DNA of 33,115 nucleotides, taken from NCBI RefSeq assembly GCF_003334385.1, contig NZ_QOWN01000049.1; one strand, 5' to 3'. Under the pieces are notes generated by a model that ran no database searches, was not told the origin of the DNA, and saw nothing but the letters and a program-made list of their open reading frames with translations. This document shows positions 21,394-25,515 of this stretch, in pieces (position 1 is the stretch's first letter; each line of letters begins with the position of its first letter). Origin of the DNA: Escherichia coli. GTDB taxonomy: Bacteria; Pseudomonadota; Gammaproteobacteria; Enterobacterales; Enterobacteriaceae. A program made the translations under genes and the position numbers.

Positions 21394-22488
21394 ATGGGAA
21401 ACCGCTTAACGCTTTCTCGCGAAGGCCGCAGCAATCTTGAGGCCTATCTTGCACGCCAGGCTGAACTGGCCGAAACCACCGTAGAACGACTGGGGAAAAC
21501 CTTCAGCGTTGATCCGGCTGTTCATCAGAAGATGGAAAACGCCATCAAAGAGAGCGACGAGCTGCTGAAAAGAATCAACAGCATCGGCGTTGACGATCAG
21601 GAGGGTGAAAAAGTCCTGGTGAATACCAGCGGCCCCATCGCCAGCACCAACTCAACCAGTGACGGCGTGAAGCGACGCAATCCCGCTGACGTCTCTGATC
21701 TGGCATCACGTCGTTATCGCTGCGAACAGGTGAACTACGACACCTTCATCAGCTACGCACAGATTGACGCGTGGAGCAGCCAGAAAAACTTCCAGCAACT
21801 GCTGAGTGCACAAATCACCCGACAGATTGCACTGGACCGTATCATGATTGGCTTTAACGGTGAGTCGCACGCCATCATCTCCGATCGTTCTGCCAACCCG
21901 AAACTTCAGGACGTTAACACCGGGTGGCTGAAACACATCCGTGAACACGCCACGACGCGTGTCGTGAAGGCAATGACGCTGACCCGTCGCGATCATGAAA
22001 ACAAACTGGTTGCAAAAGGCGACTACGGCAACGCTGACGCGATGGTTAACGACATTCGCTCTTCCATACTGGATGAGTGGCACAAGGACGCCCCGGATCT
22101 GGTTGTTGTCATGGGCCGCAACCTGTTCAACACGCTGCGTCTGCCTATGATTAACGCCATCAGCACCACCAACCCGAACACGGAGCTGGTCGCCGGACAG
22201 CTGATTACAGCCTCCCGCACCATTGGCGCGCTGCCAACCTTCTTTGCGCCGTACTTCCCGGACGATGCCATGCTGATCACGTCGTTCAGCAACCTTTCGG
22301 TCTACTTCCAGAAAGGGTCACTGCGTCGCTTCATCCGTGAAGAGCCGGAGTACAACCGTATCGCCACCTACCAGTCCATGAACGACTGCTACGTGGTGGA
22401 AGACTACGGCAAGTGCGCACTGATTGAGGGCATTTCTTTCGCCGGTGAAGATCCGGAAGACAAGAAAGAGGCAGAAGCACAGGCGTAA
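21394..22488 (+). CDS. N: Major capsid protein, P2 gpN family
   Basis: 364 aa; blocks such as DPDLVVVMGRNLF, PYFPDDAMLITSFSNLSVY and YVVEDYGKCALIEGI parallel P2 N as recalled; aggaac RBS. Confidence 0.9.
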   Translation: MGNRLTLSREGRSNLEAYLARQAELAETTVERLGKTFSVDPAVHQKMENAIKESDELLKRINSIGVDDQEGEKVLVNTSGPIASTNSTSDGVKRRNPADVSDLASRRYRCEQVNYDTFISYAQIDAWSSQKNFQQLLSAQITRQIALDRIMIGFNGESHAIISDRSANPKLQDVNTGWLKHIREHATTRVVKAMTLTRRDHENKLVAKGDYGNADAMVNDIRSSILDEWHKDAPDLVVVMGRNLFNTLRLPMINAISTTNPNTELVAGQLITASRTIGALPTFFAPYFPDDAMLITSFSNLSVYFQKGSLRRFIREEPEYNRIATYQSMNDCYVVEDYGKCALIEGISFAGEDPEDKKEAEAQA

Positions 22489-22496
22489 CGCATTAT

Positions 22497-22516
22497 GGCG
22501 GGCACATGTGCCCGCC
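22497..22516 (+). terminator. Perfect 20-bp GC-rich palindrome downstream of the capsid gene (hairpin / attenuator candidate)
   Basis: ggcgggcacatgtgcccgcc is its own reverse complement, 9 nt after the N stop; no strong T-tract follows, so it may be a partial terminator or processing element. Confidence 0.35.
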
Positions 22517-22537
22517 GGTTAATCAGGAGTCGAATAC

Positions 22538-23347
22538 ATGCTGACACCGGCACAACGATACCTTCAGCGCGTGATGGCGCATCATCGGGCTGATCCATTC
22601 AGTCGCGAAGAGCAGCGAACACGAACGGCACATGAACAGGTTCTTCACCAGTTACGCCTCGCCCAGTTGCAGCTGAAGGGCGTGCAGTCGAACATCGCGA
22701 AAGCGGAGCTGAAGAAGCACCTGATACCGAATTTTGAAGGCTGGATAGACGGCACGCTGGCAGGCGACAGCGGACGCCAGGACGAAGTCATTACCACCAT
22801 GATGGTGTGGGCAATTGACTGCCGGGATTATCCGCTGGCACTGCGTATCGGTGAGTACGTCATTCGTCACCGGCTGGCACTGCCGGACAACTTCGGGCGC
22901 GATTCGGCGACCGTGCTCACCGAAGAAATTGCCGAAGTTGTGCTGACAGAAGCCGCCACCAACAGCGAAACCGACTTATCCGGCTATATCCGTATGCTGG
23001 ACGAGCTGGATGCACTGGTTCACGACCAGGACATGCCGGATCAGGTTCGTGCAAAACTACATAAGGCGCGGGCATTTTCACGGCGCGCATCAGGCAGTAC
23101 GGAAGACATGACTGTGTCACTTGGTCTGCTGCGTGAAGCTATGCGCATCAATCCGGCAGCAGGCGTGAAGCGTGAAATCGCCACGCTGGCCAGAAAGGTA
23201 TCAAAGGTTCAGCCGGAACCGGAAAAACCGGCAGAAGAGAAAAGTAAATCGAAAGCAACATCAGGGCGCAAAAAGCCGACTACAAAAGCGACGGCCAGAA
23301 AAGCCACGAAAAAAACCGCCGCAAAACCGTCGCGCAAGGCGACCTGA
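22538..23347 (+). CDS. M: Terminase small (endonuclease) subunit, P2 gpM family, with Lys/Ala/Thr-rich C-terminal tail
   Basis: Position and ~245-aa core consistent with P2 M; caggag RBS; C-terminal ~50 aa are low-complexity basic (KSKSKATSGRKKPTTKATARKATKKTAAKPSRKAT). Confidence 0.8.
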   Translation: MLTPAQRYLQRVMAHHRADPFSREEQRTRTAHEQVLHQLRLAQLQLKGVQSNIAKAELKKHLIPNFEGWIDGTLAGDSGRQDEVITTMMVWAIDCRDYPLALRIGEYVIRHRLALPDNFGRDSATVLTEEIAEVVLTEAATNSETDLSGYIRMLDELDALVHDQDMPDQVRAKLHKARAFSRRASGSTEDMTVSLGLLREAMRINPAAGVKREIATLARKVSKVQPEPEKPAEEKSKSKATSGRKKPTTKATARKATKKTAAKPSRKAT

Positions 23348-23455
23348 TAACACCGGACCCGACCTCGTCGGCAGGCGGCGCGACCGGTGATCTGATCGCT
23401 GACTCCCGGTCATTTTCACCGGTCGCCCACCGCCTGATCTACAGGAGAAGACATC

Positions 23456-23950
23456 ATGAGCATGGTAGCCAGACCCCGTGTGAACGACGCCACGGATGAC
23501 ACGACAGACACCGACGACGGAGAAGCGCGCATCAGTACAGACGCGTTCTGGCCGGATATCGTGCTGAAAGAGCTGCGCCTTGCCATGCGCATTCCCGGGC
23601 GCACCACCACGTCACGTCTGCTGCATTCGGCCACCGAAGCTGTGGCACACGTAACGGCAGAGCTTGACACCTGGAAACAGAAACAGGAGGCGGCGGGACG
23701 GTCGACACTGGCGGACGTTCCGGCAGCACACATCAACGGTGAGAGCGTGAACGTGCACCGGTATCGACGCGCGGTGTATGCACTGACCCGCGCGGGCGTT
23801 CTTGAGCGTTCGCGGGATGTGGACACCACCGACAAAGGTGATCGCCGGGCCGATGCGCTGGACATGCAGATTGAAGATATGTGGCGCGATGCACGCTGGG
23901 CAATATCCGATATTCGCGGCGTCAGACGGATTTATGCGGAGCTGATTTAA
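23456..23950 (+). CDS. L: Head completion/stabilisation protein, P2 gpL family
   Basis: 164 aa at the gpL position; ggaga RBS; stop overlaps the X start. Confidence 0.8.
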   Translation: MSMVARPRVNDATDDTTDTDDGEARISTDAFWPDIVLKELRLAMRIPGRTTTSRLLHSATEAVAHVTAELDTWKQKQEAAGRSTLADVPAAHINGESVNVHRYRRAVYALTRAGVLERSRDVDTTDKGDRRADALDMQIEDMWRDARWAISDIRGVRRIYAELI

Positions 23951-24150
23951 TGAAGGTAACCGCGCATGACGGCGACACCGTTGACTTACTCTGCCAGCGT
24001 CATTACGGCATGACAAAGGGCGTGACAGAGCGCGTTCTGGCTGCCAATCCGGGGCTGAGTAACACGGTATTCCTCACTGCCGGGCAGGAAGTTGAATTAC
24101 CGGAAATCACACAGGAAAAACAGCGCGAAACCGTTCAGTTGTGGGATTGA
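23950..24150 (+). CDS. X: Tail protein X (LysM-like), P2 gpX family
   Basis: 66 aa (MKVTAHDGDTVDLLCQRHYG...) at the gpX position between L and the holin. Confidence 0.78.
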   Translation: MKVTAHDGDTVDLLCQRHYGMTKGVTERVLAANPGLSNTVFLTAGQEVELPEITQEKQRETVQLWD

Positions 24151-24152
24151 TT

Positions 24153-24443
24153 ATGTTTCAGAGAATTTACGACCACATTACGTTTTTCACATCCGTCATG
24201 GTCACCGGTATAGGGGTTATGACGCTGAGCGAGAAGATGGCGCTGGCAGGACTGATTCTGGGGGCGCTTTCACTGCTGCGCGGATGGATGCACAGAACAC
24301 GTATGGAGCAGGCACAGGAGCGGCGCAATGAGCTTATTGCACGCATTGCCGACCAGATGCAGCACCGACCACTAAAAGGCAGCGAGAAGCGCGCTCTGGA
24401 AGCCCTGAATGCAGACGGGGAATCACATGCCAGGACAGATTAA
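24153..24443 (+). CDS. Y: Holin (two predicted TM helices)
   Basis: 96 aa with hydrophobic segments ITFFTSVMVTGIGVMTL and MALAGLILGALSLL and a charged C-terminus; immediately upstream of the endolysin. Confidence 0.65.
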   Translation: MFQRIYDHITFFTSVMVTGIGVMTLSEKMALAGLILGALSLLRGWMHRTRMEQAQERRNELIARIADQMQHRPLKGSEKRALEALNADGESHARTD

Positions 24444-24966
24444 ACGCTATGCCGTTGCCGCCATCGTGGCGCTGGGTTTTTCGCTGGCCCCCGGGGAGCT
24501 GAGAACCTCACAGGAGGCACAGGAAAAAATTGCCACCTGGGAAGAGTGTCGGGCATTCCCGTACAGGGATATCGCTGGCGTGAAAACAGTGGGTTGTGGC
24601 TCAACGGGAAACGTCCCCGACCGCCACCATACCAAACAGGAAGTTGCCGGTCGATGGGTGAACGATTTACGACGGGCGGAGAACTGCATCAATCAGAATT
24701 TCAATGGCCGCGACATGCCACAGCGCCACTTTGAGGCAATGACGGATGCTGCCTTTAATCTGGGGTGCAAAGGCCTGATGTGGTTTAAGGGGCGTGACGG
24801 GAGGATGCACAGAACAACCATCTGGAAGTTCGCTCAGGGAAAGAACTGGAGCGCAATGTGCGGCAGGCTGACGGATTTTGTGAACAGCGGCGGACGCTAT
24901 TCACAGGGGCTGTTTAACCGGCGCAATGACTTCAGGAACTGGTGTATGAACGGAGTGAAGCAATGA
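24409..24966 (+). CDS. K: SAR endolysin (GH24 T4-type lysozyme domain with N-terminal signal-anchor-release segment)
   Basis: N-terminal weakly hydrophobic YAVAAIVALGFSLA followed by a catalytic E-x8-D-x5-T pattern (EECRAFPYRDIAGVKT); the alternative start ATG 24427 has the better RBS. Confidence 0.82.
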   Translation: MQTGNHMPGQIKRYAVAAIVALGFSLAPGELRTSQEAQEKIATWEECRAFPYRDIAGVKTVGCGSTGNVPDRHHTKQEVAGRWVNDLRRAENCINQNFNGRDMPQRHFEAMTDAAFNLGCKGLMWFKGRDGRMHRTTIWKFAQGKNWSAMCGRLTDFVNSGGRYSQGLFNRRNDFRNWCMNGVKQ

Positions 24967-25397
24967 AAACACCTGCCGTGTTGCTCTGGTTTCTTGCCAC
25001 CCTGTTGCTTTGTGGCCTGACAGGCTGGGAAGCATACCGCAAAGGGAAGGAAAGTCTCGGACGGGAACAGATGATGGACATCATAGAGGACAACCGCGCC
25101 GCCATGCAGGAAGTTCGCCATGCATACACAGACTTTTCCAGGGTGATAAACGTGATCCGCATTCTGGACCAGCAACGGATCACAGAAGGAGAGCAACGAC
25201 GTGAAGAAATGCAAAAAGCCGTGCAGGGCGACACGTGTGCCAGCGCTTATCCTCCCGCTGCTGTTACTGAGCGGTTGCAGCAACACGCCGCACACGTTGA
25301 AAACCAGACTCGTTTACGAGCCGGTGCCGACAGTTCTGACAAGGCAGACCCCGGTTCCGGCACTGGAAATACCCGTGACATGGTACAGGGTGACTGA
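24963..25397 (+). CDS. i-spanin (Rz/LysB-like inner-membrane spanin)
   Basis: N-terminal TM (AVLLWFLATLLLCGL) then charged coiled-coil-like region; ATGA overlap with the endolysin stop; embedded o-spanin ORF in another frame. Confidence 0.7.
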   Translation: MKTPAVLLWFLATLLLCGLTGWEAYRKGKESLGREQMMDIIEDNRAAMQEVRHAYTDFSRVINVIRILDQQRITEGEQRREEMQKAVQGDTCASAYPPAAVTERLQQHAAHVENQTRLRAGADSSDKADPGSGTGNTRDMVQGD

Positions 25398-25512
25398 ATG
25401 GAGCGATCGGCTACTGGAAGCACTCGACACATGCAACGCAGACAAGGCTGCGATCGCCTGGCTGGATAAACAAAGAGCAGAACGGGCGCAAGATGCGCCC
25501 CATCAGGAGTAA
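25201..25512 (+). CDS. o-spanin (Rz1/LysC-like outer-membrane lipoprotein)
   Basis: GTG start after ggagag RBS; lipoprotein signal with lipobox LLLLSGC; overlaps the 3' end of the i-spanin gene out of frame. Confidence 0.6.
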   Translation: MKKCKKPCRATRVPALILPLLLLSGCSNTPHTLKTRLVYEPVPTVLTRQTPVPALEIPVTWYRVTEWSDRLLEALDTCNADKAAIAWLDKQRAERAQDAPHQE

Positions 25513-25515
25513 ACG

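Follow-up and report, generated by a model that had tools for sequence, protein, structure and literature searches.

Gene content of the locus

Which lysis plan is carried by this prophage of Escherichia coli, and does its endolysin begin with a signal-anchor-release (SAR) segment? The window, that is, the whole stretch of 33,115 nucleotides that was analysed, contains four co-oriented, closely spaced open reading frames on the plus strand at positions 24153-25512, downstream of tail gene X in the late operon. We read them as the late-operon lysis cassette of a P2-like prophage that is built on the HP1/P1-Lyz plan and works by a SAR endolysin mechanism, and we give this reading a probability of about 75%. 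Its direct basis is gene content, gene order, overlaps between genes, homology, a catalytic triad, a lipobox and hydropathy profiles. The locus is a complete yet ordinary lysis cassette (a holin, a putatively membrane-tethered lysozyme and two spanins) in a P2-like (Peduoviridae) E. coli prophage. The features are as follows (KD, mean Kyte-Doolittle hydropathy; TMD, transmembrane domain).

24153..24443, plus strand: class II (two-TMD) holin, 96 aa, ATG start at 24153; phrog_1350 holin, 1.7e-24
Within the holin, from hydropathy: TMD1 at about residues 9-25, loop S26-E27-K28, TMD2 at about 29-46, highly charged C-terminal tail of 50 aa
24427..24966, plus strand: GH24 (T4-lysozyme fold) muramidase of the P1 Lyz type, 179 aa, with a 17-nt overlap with the holin gene
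24427..24507, plus strand: putative SAR segment of the endolysin, residues 1-27, MPGQIKR, then YAVAAIVALGFSLA, then PGELRT
24541..24588, plus strand: catalytic triad E39-x8-D48-x5-T54 of the endolysin; E39, C41 and T54 are invariant in an alignment of 30 homologues
24963..25397, plus strand: i-spanin (Rz/LysB analogue), 144 aa, N-terminal TMD at residues 3-22 with KD 2.51; phrog_214 Rz-like, 6.8e-26
25201..25512, plus strand: o-spanin (Rz1/LysC analogue), 103-aa precursor, GTG start; phrog_456 Rz1-like, 1.8e-21

The first-pass annotation had placed a four-gene lysis cassette here. The genes are real and correctly placed, and each of them matched a lysis PHROG (phrog_1350, phrog_7, phrog_214 and phrog_456). 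None of the four proteins had an NCBIfam match above the cut-off. In a scan of positions 22400-28400, promoter and terminator sites were no more numerous than in shuffled controls, and none was interpretable within the cassette. The RefSeq annotation of the module is poor: the holin is named 'hypothetical protein' or 'phage tail protein', the i-spanin 'hypothetical protein', and the PGAP model of the o-spanin begins at TTG 25297 and lacks the lipobox.

The holin

The description of the endolysin's partner as a small two-TM holin was confirmed. The 96-aa protein has two hydrophobic segments (residues 9-25 and 29-46), a three-residue loop and a cationic C-terminal flank. An alternative start, GTG 24141, would give a protein of 100 aa, and the relatives have ATG at the same position. 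A dual start (antiholin) at GTG 24141 and ATG 24153 was considered and rejected. The four extra residues (M-G-L-I) bring no charge, unlike those of lambda S107 and S21-71, and the use of ATG at the upstream position by the relatives also opposes it; we took this as a start-site ambiguity.

The sole Pfam match of the holin was a weak one to PF16080, the HP1 holin family (i-E 0.0026, 18.2 bits, model positions 7-54 of 56), and the similarity to HP1 hol was marginal (31% identity over 64 aa). These matches suggest that the holin is weakly related to the HP1 holin family. The word-indexed homologue search gave seven close clusters and thus no deep view of the family.

The first-pass annotation also called the protein 'pinholin-like'. 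In a true pinholin of the S21 kind, TMD1 would exit the membrane, and the heptameric, nanometre-scale channels made by TMD2 would cause depolarisation only. The two TMDs joined by a very short loop, the neighbouring SAR-type endolysin and the small-xxx-small motifs in TMD2 (G33xxxG37 and S40xxxG44) agree with such a protein. However, TMD1 is ordinarily hydrophobic, with a KD of 1.79 and 41% weakly hydrophobic residues; in EssD, an S21-type pinholin, the corresponding values for TMD1 are 0.52 and 55%. The approximate dGapp values were +0.9 for TMD1 of the holin and +8.6 for that of EssD; these Hessa-scale values are additive approximations and serve for comparison only. No match to EssD was found by blastp (E<=100, word size 2) or by tblastn, and the lone Pfam match, though weak, leads to the HP1 family instead. 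The partner of P1 Lyz, LydA, is not known as a pinholin, and SAR endolysins are therefore not in every case accompanied by one. We know of no test of hole size in the HP1 holin family. Only the two-TMD count speaks for the label, which is a guess from the pairing with a SAR endolysin, and we consider a true pinholin doubtful at this locus.

The endolysin and its N-terminal segment

The endolysin matched PF00959 (3.3e-19) and phrog_7 (3.9e-47). Over 172 aa its identity to P1 Lyz is 42% (E 8e-39), and the anchor region falls within this alignment. The closest solved structure by sequence was PDB 1XJT (P1 Lyz; E 8.6e-35). The AF2 model had a pLDDT of 89.9, and its best Foldseek match was also 1XJT, the active form of P1 Lyz (TM 0.89, rmsd 1.6 A, 173 columns); this agreement is not independent, as 1XJT is probably among the training data. 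Alignment to P2 K and to the SAR endolysins of phages 21 and P1 had been proposed as a check. No similarity to P2 K was found, either by blastp or by tblastn of the window, and R21 (PDB 3HDE) was a distant match only (E 4.5e-5, TM 0.67). Position 48 of the triad is Asp in the subclade of the window endolysin and Cys in the P1-like relatives. C41 (E+2) lies inside the triad stretch, and C57 (T+3, nt 24595-24597) lies just past it. C87, C114, C145 and C173 are invariant in the homologues, which suggests that the protein may form periplasmic disulfides.

In a published description, a SAR domain has two to three basic residues and, behind them, an uncharged TMD in which weakly hydrophobic residues predominate (PMC9239132). 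The N-terminus of the endolysin fits this description. The basic residues K6 and R7 are followed by the uncharged stretch YAVAAIVALGFSLAP, in which the best 15-mer has a KD of 1.94 and 53% Gly, Ala, Ser or Thr. The hydrophobic core, Y8-A21, is 14-15 residues long (KD 1.27 over 19) and thus shorter than the SAR domains of P1 Lyz and R21/RrrD, which have about 19 residues and a KD of about 2.1. The anchor segment is conserved across 30 homologues and aligns with the SAR region of P1 Lyz. In the AF2 model, residues 10-20 form a helix (pLDDT 94) that is packed as in active P1 Lyz. The SAR reading of the endolysin, which the first-pass annotation had proposed, is well supported by sequence and modelling. 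From this we infer that the anchor is not cleaved, that it tethers the enzyme to the membrane and later releases it, and how the enzyme is activated. A lipoprotein N-terminus was rejected, as the lipobox Cys is absent.

The segment could instead be an ordinary cleavable Sec signal peptide, in which case the lysozyme would be soluble in the periplasm and restrained otherwise than by tethering. A core of 14-15 aa is a typical length for an h-region, and the layout of n-region, h-region and small-x-small site is that of a signal peptide. There is also a precedent in T4 RI, whose accepted SAR domain was later reclassified as a cleaved signal peptide (PMC8385771). However, the sole small-x-small site, S-L-A, is adjoined at +1 by P22, which is nearly invariant, and Pro at +1 is reported to block E. 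coli signal peptidase I (Barkocy-Gallagher and Bassford 1992, as cited in PMC8385771). Position 23, which would be the next -1 residue to consider, is variable across the family (G, D, E, H or A), so the family has no conserved cleavable site. Relatives at 60-65% identity have the same N-terminal segment but carry Cys8 and the catalytic Cys48, which match C13 and C51 of P1 Lyz, and the Cys in the segment is kept in 39 of 45 cluster representatives. In these Cys-type relatives the segment must stay on the mature protein, because a Cys that partners the catalytic domain would otherwise be useless. One reason to retain the segment, the anchor Cys, has been lost in the window's subclade; the segment itself is essentially the same as in the Cys-bearing relatives. 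It is modelled with high confidence as part of the fold, and an active muramidase that was freely secreted would lyse the cell without holin control. Taken together, a cleaved signal peptide is improbable.

A cytoplasmic endolysin, with the N-terminal helix as part of a soluble fold and with large holin holes for its release, would agree with the short hydrophobic stretch and with the packing of this helix onto the globular domain in the AF2 model, but it is very unlikely, since K6-R7 and the uncharged hydrophobic stretch behind them are laid out like an export signal, at least four further invariant Cys suggest periplasmic disulfides, and the homologous segment of P1 Lyz is an export and anchor signal by experiment (Xu et al. 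2004, as cited in PMC9239132).

Cysteine configuration of the endolysin

Cysteines were compared in the 45 cluster representatives that have a hydrophobic N-terminus and a Cys at E+2. Between Asp-type and Cys-type endolysins the identity is 60-65%, and three positions that co-vary (8, 48 and 57) set the two types apart. C57 was found in none of the 39 representatives with the anchor Cys. Among the six representatives without it, four mutually divergent ones, the window endolysin included, have both C57 and the catalytic Asp. The association between loss of the anchor Cys and C57 had a Fisher p of ~1e-4, a value uncorrected for phylogeny. These proteins form an endolysin subtype with Cys at T+3 in place of the SAR-domain Cys.

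One tentative explanation, which we hold to be possible but not probable, is that Cys57 took over from the anchor Cys in pairing with the conserved Cys41 near the catalytic Glu. The subtype would then have a third arrangement of cysteines, in addition to P1-type isomerisation and Lyz103-type caging: a Cys41-Cys57 bond within the catalytic domain might gate the active site or stabilise it, and activity would be controlled by membrane release alone. The Asp-type and Cys-type enzymes make a handy natural pair for studying how SAR endolysins change between disulfide-based control and control by conformation alone.

The spanins

The start of the i-spanin gene overlaps the stop of the endolysin gene (ATGA). 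The o-spanin has the lipobox L-S-G-C, with Cys26 at nt 25276 and Ser27 at +2, and this lipobox is conserved in the relatives. The protein is a lipoprotein without an inner-membrane retention signal at +2. Its NCBIfam match, to P2_Rz1, was under the cut-off. From the upstream stop as far as the lipobox Cys, the frame contains no ATG. The GTG start lies 25 codons before this Cys, is kept in two divergent relatives, and follows AAGGAG at a spacing of 9 nt.

The o-spanin gene had been described as embedded out of frame with a GTG start. The frame (+1 relative to the i-spanin gene) and the conserved GTG agree with this. The gene begins within the i-spanin gene but continues for 115 nt past the stop of that gene (25512 against 25397), and it is therefore not embedded. 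The spanin pair is a two-component system of the 'overlapped' architecture, of the P2 lysB/lysC type.

Integrity of the cassette

The cassette was 99.9-100% identical across 14 complete E. coli genomes. Neither the cassette nor the esterase module gave a megablast match among 50,697 phage records; nucleotide megablast having given none, the phage relatives of the cassette were located at the protein level. The genes could be the decaying, nonfunctional leftover of a cryptic prophage, as the prophage is present in just 16 of 5426 complete E. coli genomes and no isolated phage in the collection is near at the nucleotide level, but this is highly improbable: the four lysis frames are all uninterrupted, as are the head and tail genes that flank them, the catalytic residues and the lipobox are kept, and so are the overlaps suggesting translational coupling, as in the free phages phiT5282H and ST16-OXA48phi5.4.

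Proposed lysis mechanism

For a functional cassette with a SAR endolysin, lysis may proceed in four steps. Sec would export the GH24 lysozyme by means of its uncleaved N-terminal segment, and the enzyme would build up in an inactive form, tethered at the periplasmic face of the inner membrane. Meanwhile, the two-TMD holin would build up in the inner membrane until its triggering caused depolarisation. The weakly hydrophobic anchor would then exit the bilayer and refold onto the catalytic domain in the manner of active P1 Lyz, and murein would be degraded. Finally, the outer membrane would be disrupted by the complex of i-spanin and o-spanin. Because the triad has Asp instead of Cys and the anchor has no Cys, disulfide isomerisation of the P1 type would be impossible, and activation would have to be conformational as in R21.

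Comparison with known lysis systems

The Y-K-lysA-lysB-lysC genes of P2 occupy the same genomic position in the late operon, directly behind gpX and ahead of tail gene R, and gpX of the two phages is 51% identical. P2 also has an overlapped pair of i-spanin and o-spanin. However, Y (three TMDs), K (lambda R-like, without an N-terminal anchor) and lysA have no counterpart in the window. When P2 Y, K, lysA, lysB and lysC were searched against the whole window by tblastn, none matched at E<=0.01, and gpX alone did; blastp found no match to the P2 lysis proteins either. This agrees with two statements of the first-pass annotation, that the cassette is unlike the Y/K/lysA set and that a lysA-like gene is missing. 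The plan of the cassette is of the HP1/P1-Lyz kind and not of the P2 kind.

Among Peduoviridae the arrangement is nothing out of the ordinary: HP1, phiT5282H and ST16-OXA48phi5.4 all have it. Haemophilus phage HP1 (Peduoviridae, Hpunavirus) has a hol-lys-Rz run, in which a small two-TMD holin directly precedes a P1-Lyz-like endolysin and the spanins follow, without lysA. The N-terminus of the HP1 endolysin is hydrophobic, and the protein is 40% identical to the window endolysin. HP1 differs in that its cassette follows the tail sheath and tube genes, whereas that of the window follows gpX, and in that HP1 Lys is of the Cys type, with both the anchor Cys and the catalytic Cys.

Enterobacter phage phiT5282H (Novemvirus) and Klebsiella phage ST16-OXA48phi5.4 (Reipivirus) have the identical order L-X-holin-endolysin-i-spanin/o-spanin-R, again without lysA. 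Identities to the window proteins were 51-56% for the holin, 62-63% for the endolysin and 35-39% for the i-spanin (35% for phiT5282H Rz). Both have overlapped spanins and a GTG 25 codons before the lipobox Cys of the o-spanin, and phiT5282H has the same 17-nt overlap of holin and endolysin genes. In contrast to the window, their endolysins are of the Cys type (Cys8, Cys48 and Ile57), their holins start with ATG where the window has GTG, and they lack the insertion of an esterase and a DUF1378 gene that sits between the o-spanin gene and R in the window. P2-like E. coli prophages can thus bear a lysis module of the HP1/P1 type instead of Y-K-lysA. The cassette is a further example of an already known arrangement, and the Asp-type Cys57 endolysin subtype is a minor new point. 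Current models of phage lysis are left unchallenged by it, and its value is mainly housekeeping.

For the endolysin, P1 Lyz (PDB 1XJT active, 1XJU inactive) belongs to the same GH24 subfamily. In both proteins a weakly hydrophobic N-terminal segment comes after basic residues, and both have a Cys at E+2 and four more conserved Cys. The window endolysin differs in having Asp48 where P1 Lyz has the catalytic Cys51, in an anchor that is about five residues shorter and has no Cys (Tyr8 aligns with Cys13 of P1), and in the extra Cys57 at T+3. The S21-R21 pair of phage 21 and DLP12 is a functional analogue, with a SAR endolysin that has an E-8-D-5-T triad, no anchor Cys and conformational activation, and with a two-TMD holin. 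Its endolysin is only distantly similar, its holin is unrelated, and TMD1 of the window holin is far more hydrophobic. The spanins of phage 21 and lambda are embedded, whereas those of the window are overlapped.

Prophage setting and organization of the lysis cassette

The window is a P2-like prophage. An identical locus in E. coli is annotated in RefSeq, and there the genes for the portal, terminase, scaffold, P2-family major capsid, gpM, head-completion, and tail protein X lie upstream of the lysis cassette, and tail genes R and S and baseplate genes V, W, J, and I lie downstream. The features from gpX onward are as follows.

23950-24150, + strand, gpX, directly preceding the holin gene
24153-24443, + strand, holin, 96 aa (phrog match 1.7e-24)
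24427-24966, + strand, endolysin, 179 aa, sharing 17 nt with the holin gene (phrog match 3.9e-47)
24963-25397, + strand, i-spanin, 144 aa, start overlapping the endolysin stop as ATGA (phrog match 6.8e-26)
25201-25512, + strand, o-spanin, 103 aa, GTG start, +1 frame (phrog match 1.8e-21)
25516-27486, + strand, 656-aa esterase-type protein with DUF1737, SASA (sialate O-acetylesterase), and DUF6645 domains
27551-27715, + strand, 54-aa single-TMD DUF1378 protein (phrog_494), after the 656-aa protein gene

All four cassette genes matched lysis PHROGs. They are real genes, and the coordinates of the first-pass annotation were right. The same annotation called the spanins embedded. They belong to the overlapped class: 238 nt of the i-spanin gene precede the o-spanin start, which is in the +1 frame, and the o-spanin gene runs on for 115 nt after the i-spanin stop. 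The out-of-frame GTG start, also proposed there, was borne out by four lines of support. From the preceding stop in the o-spanin frame to the lipobox Cys there is no ATG. The GTG, exactly 25 codons before this Cys, is kept in two divergent relatives. AAGGAG lies 9 nt upstream. The predicted precursor is of lipoprotein type, with a cationic N-terminus, a lipobox L-S-G-C26 followed by Ser at +2, and a mature part rich in Pro. On these grounds, the GTG start is sound. The lysC model of RefSeq/PGAP starts at TTG 25297 (25297-25512, 71 aa; 7348-7563 in locus L001) and lacks the signal peptide and lipobox Cys26; this start is an annotation error.

In RefSeq, the i-spanin is labelled a "hypothetical protein", and the holin appears under that name or as a "phage tail protein". 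The annotation of Klebsiella phage ST16-OXA48phi5.4 has a truncated o-spanin model too (41 aa) and gives the holin as a "tail protein".

The domain layout of the 656-aa protein matches that of NanS-p. The protein shares 56% identity with proteins of Stx-converting lambdoid phages, and 347 phage records match it, mostly Stx phages. Enterobacter phage phiT5282H and ST16-OXA48phi5.4 lack the esterase and DUF1378 insertion, whereas the window has both. The esterase module, otherwise found mostly in Stx phages, is thus a moron located next to this P2-like prophage's lysis genes. A strong terminator-like hairpin (27771-27791, - strand; 8-bp stem with 6 GC pairs, then a T-run) separates the DUF1378 gene from tail gene R. 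No other candidate terminator in the 6 kb scanned looked as good, and this one may mark a border of the inserted module.

Fourteen complete E. coli genomes carried the 1.57-kb stretch from gpX to the cassette end at 99.9-100% identity, and the lysis region was found in 16 of 5426 overall. No phage record matched this stretch at the megablast level. For the whole window, none of the isolated phages in the collection was close to the prophage lineage. The nearest, Escherichia phage P88 and its relatives, showed approximately 72-74% nucleotide identity, confined to the replication, terminase, and portal genes.

Endolysin family and N-terminal segment

The endolysin, a Pfam PF00959 member with the triad E39-x8-D48-x5-T54, shares 42% identity with P1 Lyz across 172 residues (E 8e-39). 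Among solved structures compared by sequence, P1 Lyz 1XJT was by far the best match (8.6e-35), and R21 3HDE was distant (4.5e-5). The AlphaFold2 model, built from a 30-sequence alignment, had a mean pLDDT of 89.9 and a helix at residues 10-20 (pLDDT ~94). 1XJT is active P1 Lyz, released SAR (signal-anchor-release) helix included, and 1XJU is the inactive form. The top Foldseek match was 1XJT (TM 0.89, rmsd 1.6 A, 173 columns); the TM against 1XJU was 0.65. The training data probably included 1XJT, so the agreement with it is not an independent line of evidence.

The endolysin N-terminus is MPGQIKR-YAVAAIVALGFSLA-PGELRT. In the working description of the Young laboratory, a SAR domain has 2-3 basic residues followed by an uncharged, mostly weakly hydrophobic stretch (PMC9239132). 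The segment (residues 1-27) fits this description, and its best 15-mer is 53% G/A/S/T. The hydrophobic core has a length of 14-15 residues. Over a 19-residue stretch KD drops to 1.27, whereas P1 Lyz and RrrD/R21 hold ~2.1 over this length. The short core is the weak point of the SAR reading. On hydropathy alone, the segment could also be the h-region of a cleaved signal peptide, as in T4 RI, whose supposed SAR domain proved to be one (PMC8385771). We consider cleavage improbable here. The sole small-x-small site is S19-L20-A21, and the nearly invariant Pro22 sits at its +1 position, where Pro blocks E. coli signal peptidase I (PMC8385771). Position 23 varies across the family (G, D, E, H, A), so there is no conserved alternative site. 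In the T4 RI work, a +1 Pro in a fusion construct made a cleavable signal peptide look uncleaved (PMC8385771).

The cysteines of the family also speak against cleavage. Relatives at 60-65% identity, the phiT5282H and ST16-OXA48phi5.4 endolysins included, carry essentially the same segment with Cys8, paired with Cys48 at the catalytic position, exactly like C13 and C51 of P1 Lyz. According to Xu et al. (2004, 2005), the P1 anchor Cys must remain on the mature enzyme for the catalytic Cys to be freed. The comparison set was 45 cluster representatives (50% identity) that have a hydrophobic N-terminus and a Cys two residues after the catalytic Glu (E+2); 39 of them had a Cys in the N-terminal segment. 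Because of these relatives and this count, the segment is read as a retained part of the enzyme in the family. We believe, with a probability of roughly 75-80% from sequence comparison and the model, that the endolysin N-terminus is a SAR domain.

Cysteines and activation mode

Three endolysin positions co-vary.

24448-24450, + strand, Y8
24568-24570, + strand, D48
24595-24597, + strand, C57

The subclade of the window has Tyr8/Asp48/Cys57, and the Cys-type relatives, P1 Lyz among them, have Cys8/Cys48/Ile-Val-Leu57. With neither an anchor Cys nor a catalytic Cys, disulfide isomerisation of the P1 type is impossible. Control of this endolysin would presumably be conformational, like that of R21. 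Cys57 occurred in 4 of the 6 representatives without an anchor Cys versus 0 of the 39 with one (Fisher p ~1e-4, uncorrected for phylogeny). This suggests, as a hypothesis, that Cys41 is always partnered, either in the anchor or at T+3, counted from Thr54.

Holin

The holin has hydrophobic segments at ~9-25 and ~29-46, an invariant S-E-K loop between them, and a 50-residue charged tail. Two such segments, a short loop, and a charged tail make it class II-type. Its sole Pfam match was the HP1 holin family, a weak one (i-E 0.0026), and its identity to HP1 hol was 31% across 64 residues. The first-pass description "pinholin-like" did not hold up. The holin showed no similarity to EssD, which is the S21-type pinholin encoded by the DLP12 prophage, and the KD of TMD1 was 1.79 versus 0.52 in EssD. 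The holin therefore lacks a SAR-like TMD1, the sole sequence-level hallmark of S21 pinholins. Its SAR endolysin partner would allow for a pinholin (PMC9239132), but such pairing does not establish one. We rather doubt that the holin is a pinholin.

The holin start is ambiguous. The ATG of the relatives corresponds to GTG 24141 in the window, and a further ATG lies 4 codons downstream, at 24153. The GTG at the relatives' ATG position (24141-24155) comes from a synonymous Leu codon of gpX, which is TTG here and TTA in the two relatives. The product may have either 100 aa or 96 aa. An antiholin dual start was rejected, since the extra M-G-L-I adds no charge.

Proposed lysis mechanism

Transcription of the late operon would yield all four proteins, and the gene overlaps suggest translational coupling. 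Sec would export the lysozyme, which the uncleaved segment would tether to the membrane. Triggering of the holin, as expected from its family, would depolarise the membrane. The anchor would then be released and the enzyme may refold to a 1XJT-like active form, with which the model is consistent. The E-D-T residues are present, and the predicted muramidase would degrade murein. Finally, the overlapped two-component spanin, recognizable by its features, would disrupt the outer membrane.

Comparison with P2 and other phages

The cassette shares with P2 the late-operon position between X and R (gpX is 51% identical to P2 X) and the spanin architecture, as P2 lysC begins within lysB and ends past it. 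The proteins themselves differ. P2 Y, K, LysA, LysB, and LysC had no match among the four cassette proteins or in the six-frame translation of the whole window, which confirms the earlier view of a cassette distinct from Y/K/lysA and without lysA. The window holin occurred in just 16 phage records, all of the phiT5282H and ST16-OXA48phi5.4 groups, and each had a close homologue of the window endolysin beside it. phiT5282H (Novemvirus) and ST16-OXA48phi5.4 (Reipivirus) have the same L-X-holin-endolysin-i-spanin/o-spanin-R order and no lysA. In HP1, also of the Peduoviridae, a two-TMD holin is accompanied by spanins and by a P1-Lyz-like endolysin whose N-terminus is hydrophobic, and lysA is absent. 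A P1-Lyz-like SAR endolysin in a "P1/P2-like" cassette has already been described in a Klebsiella study (PMC9902359). The arrangement is thus a lysis module already known as an alternative among P2-like phages, and this locus adds a new member.
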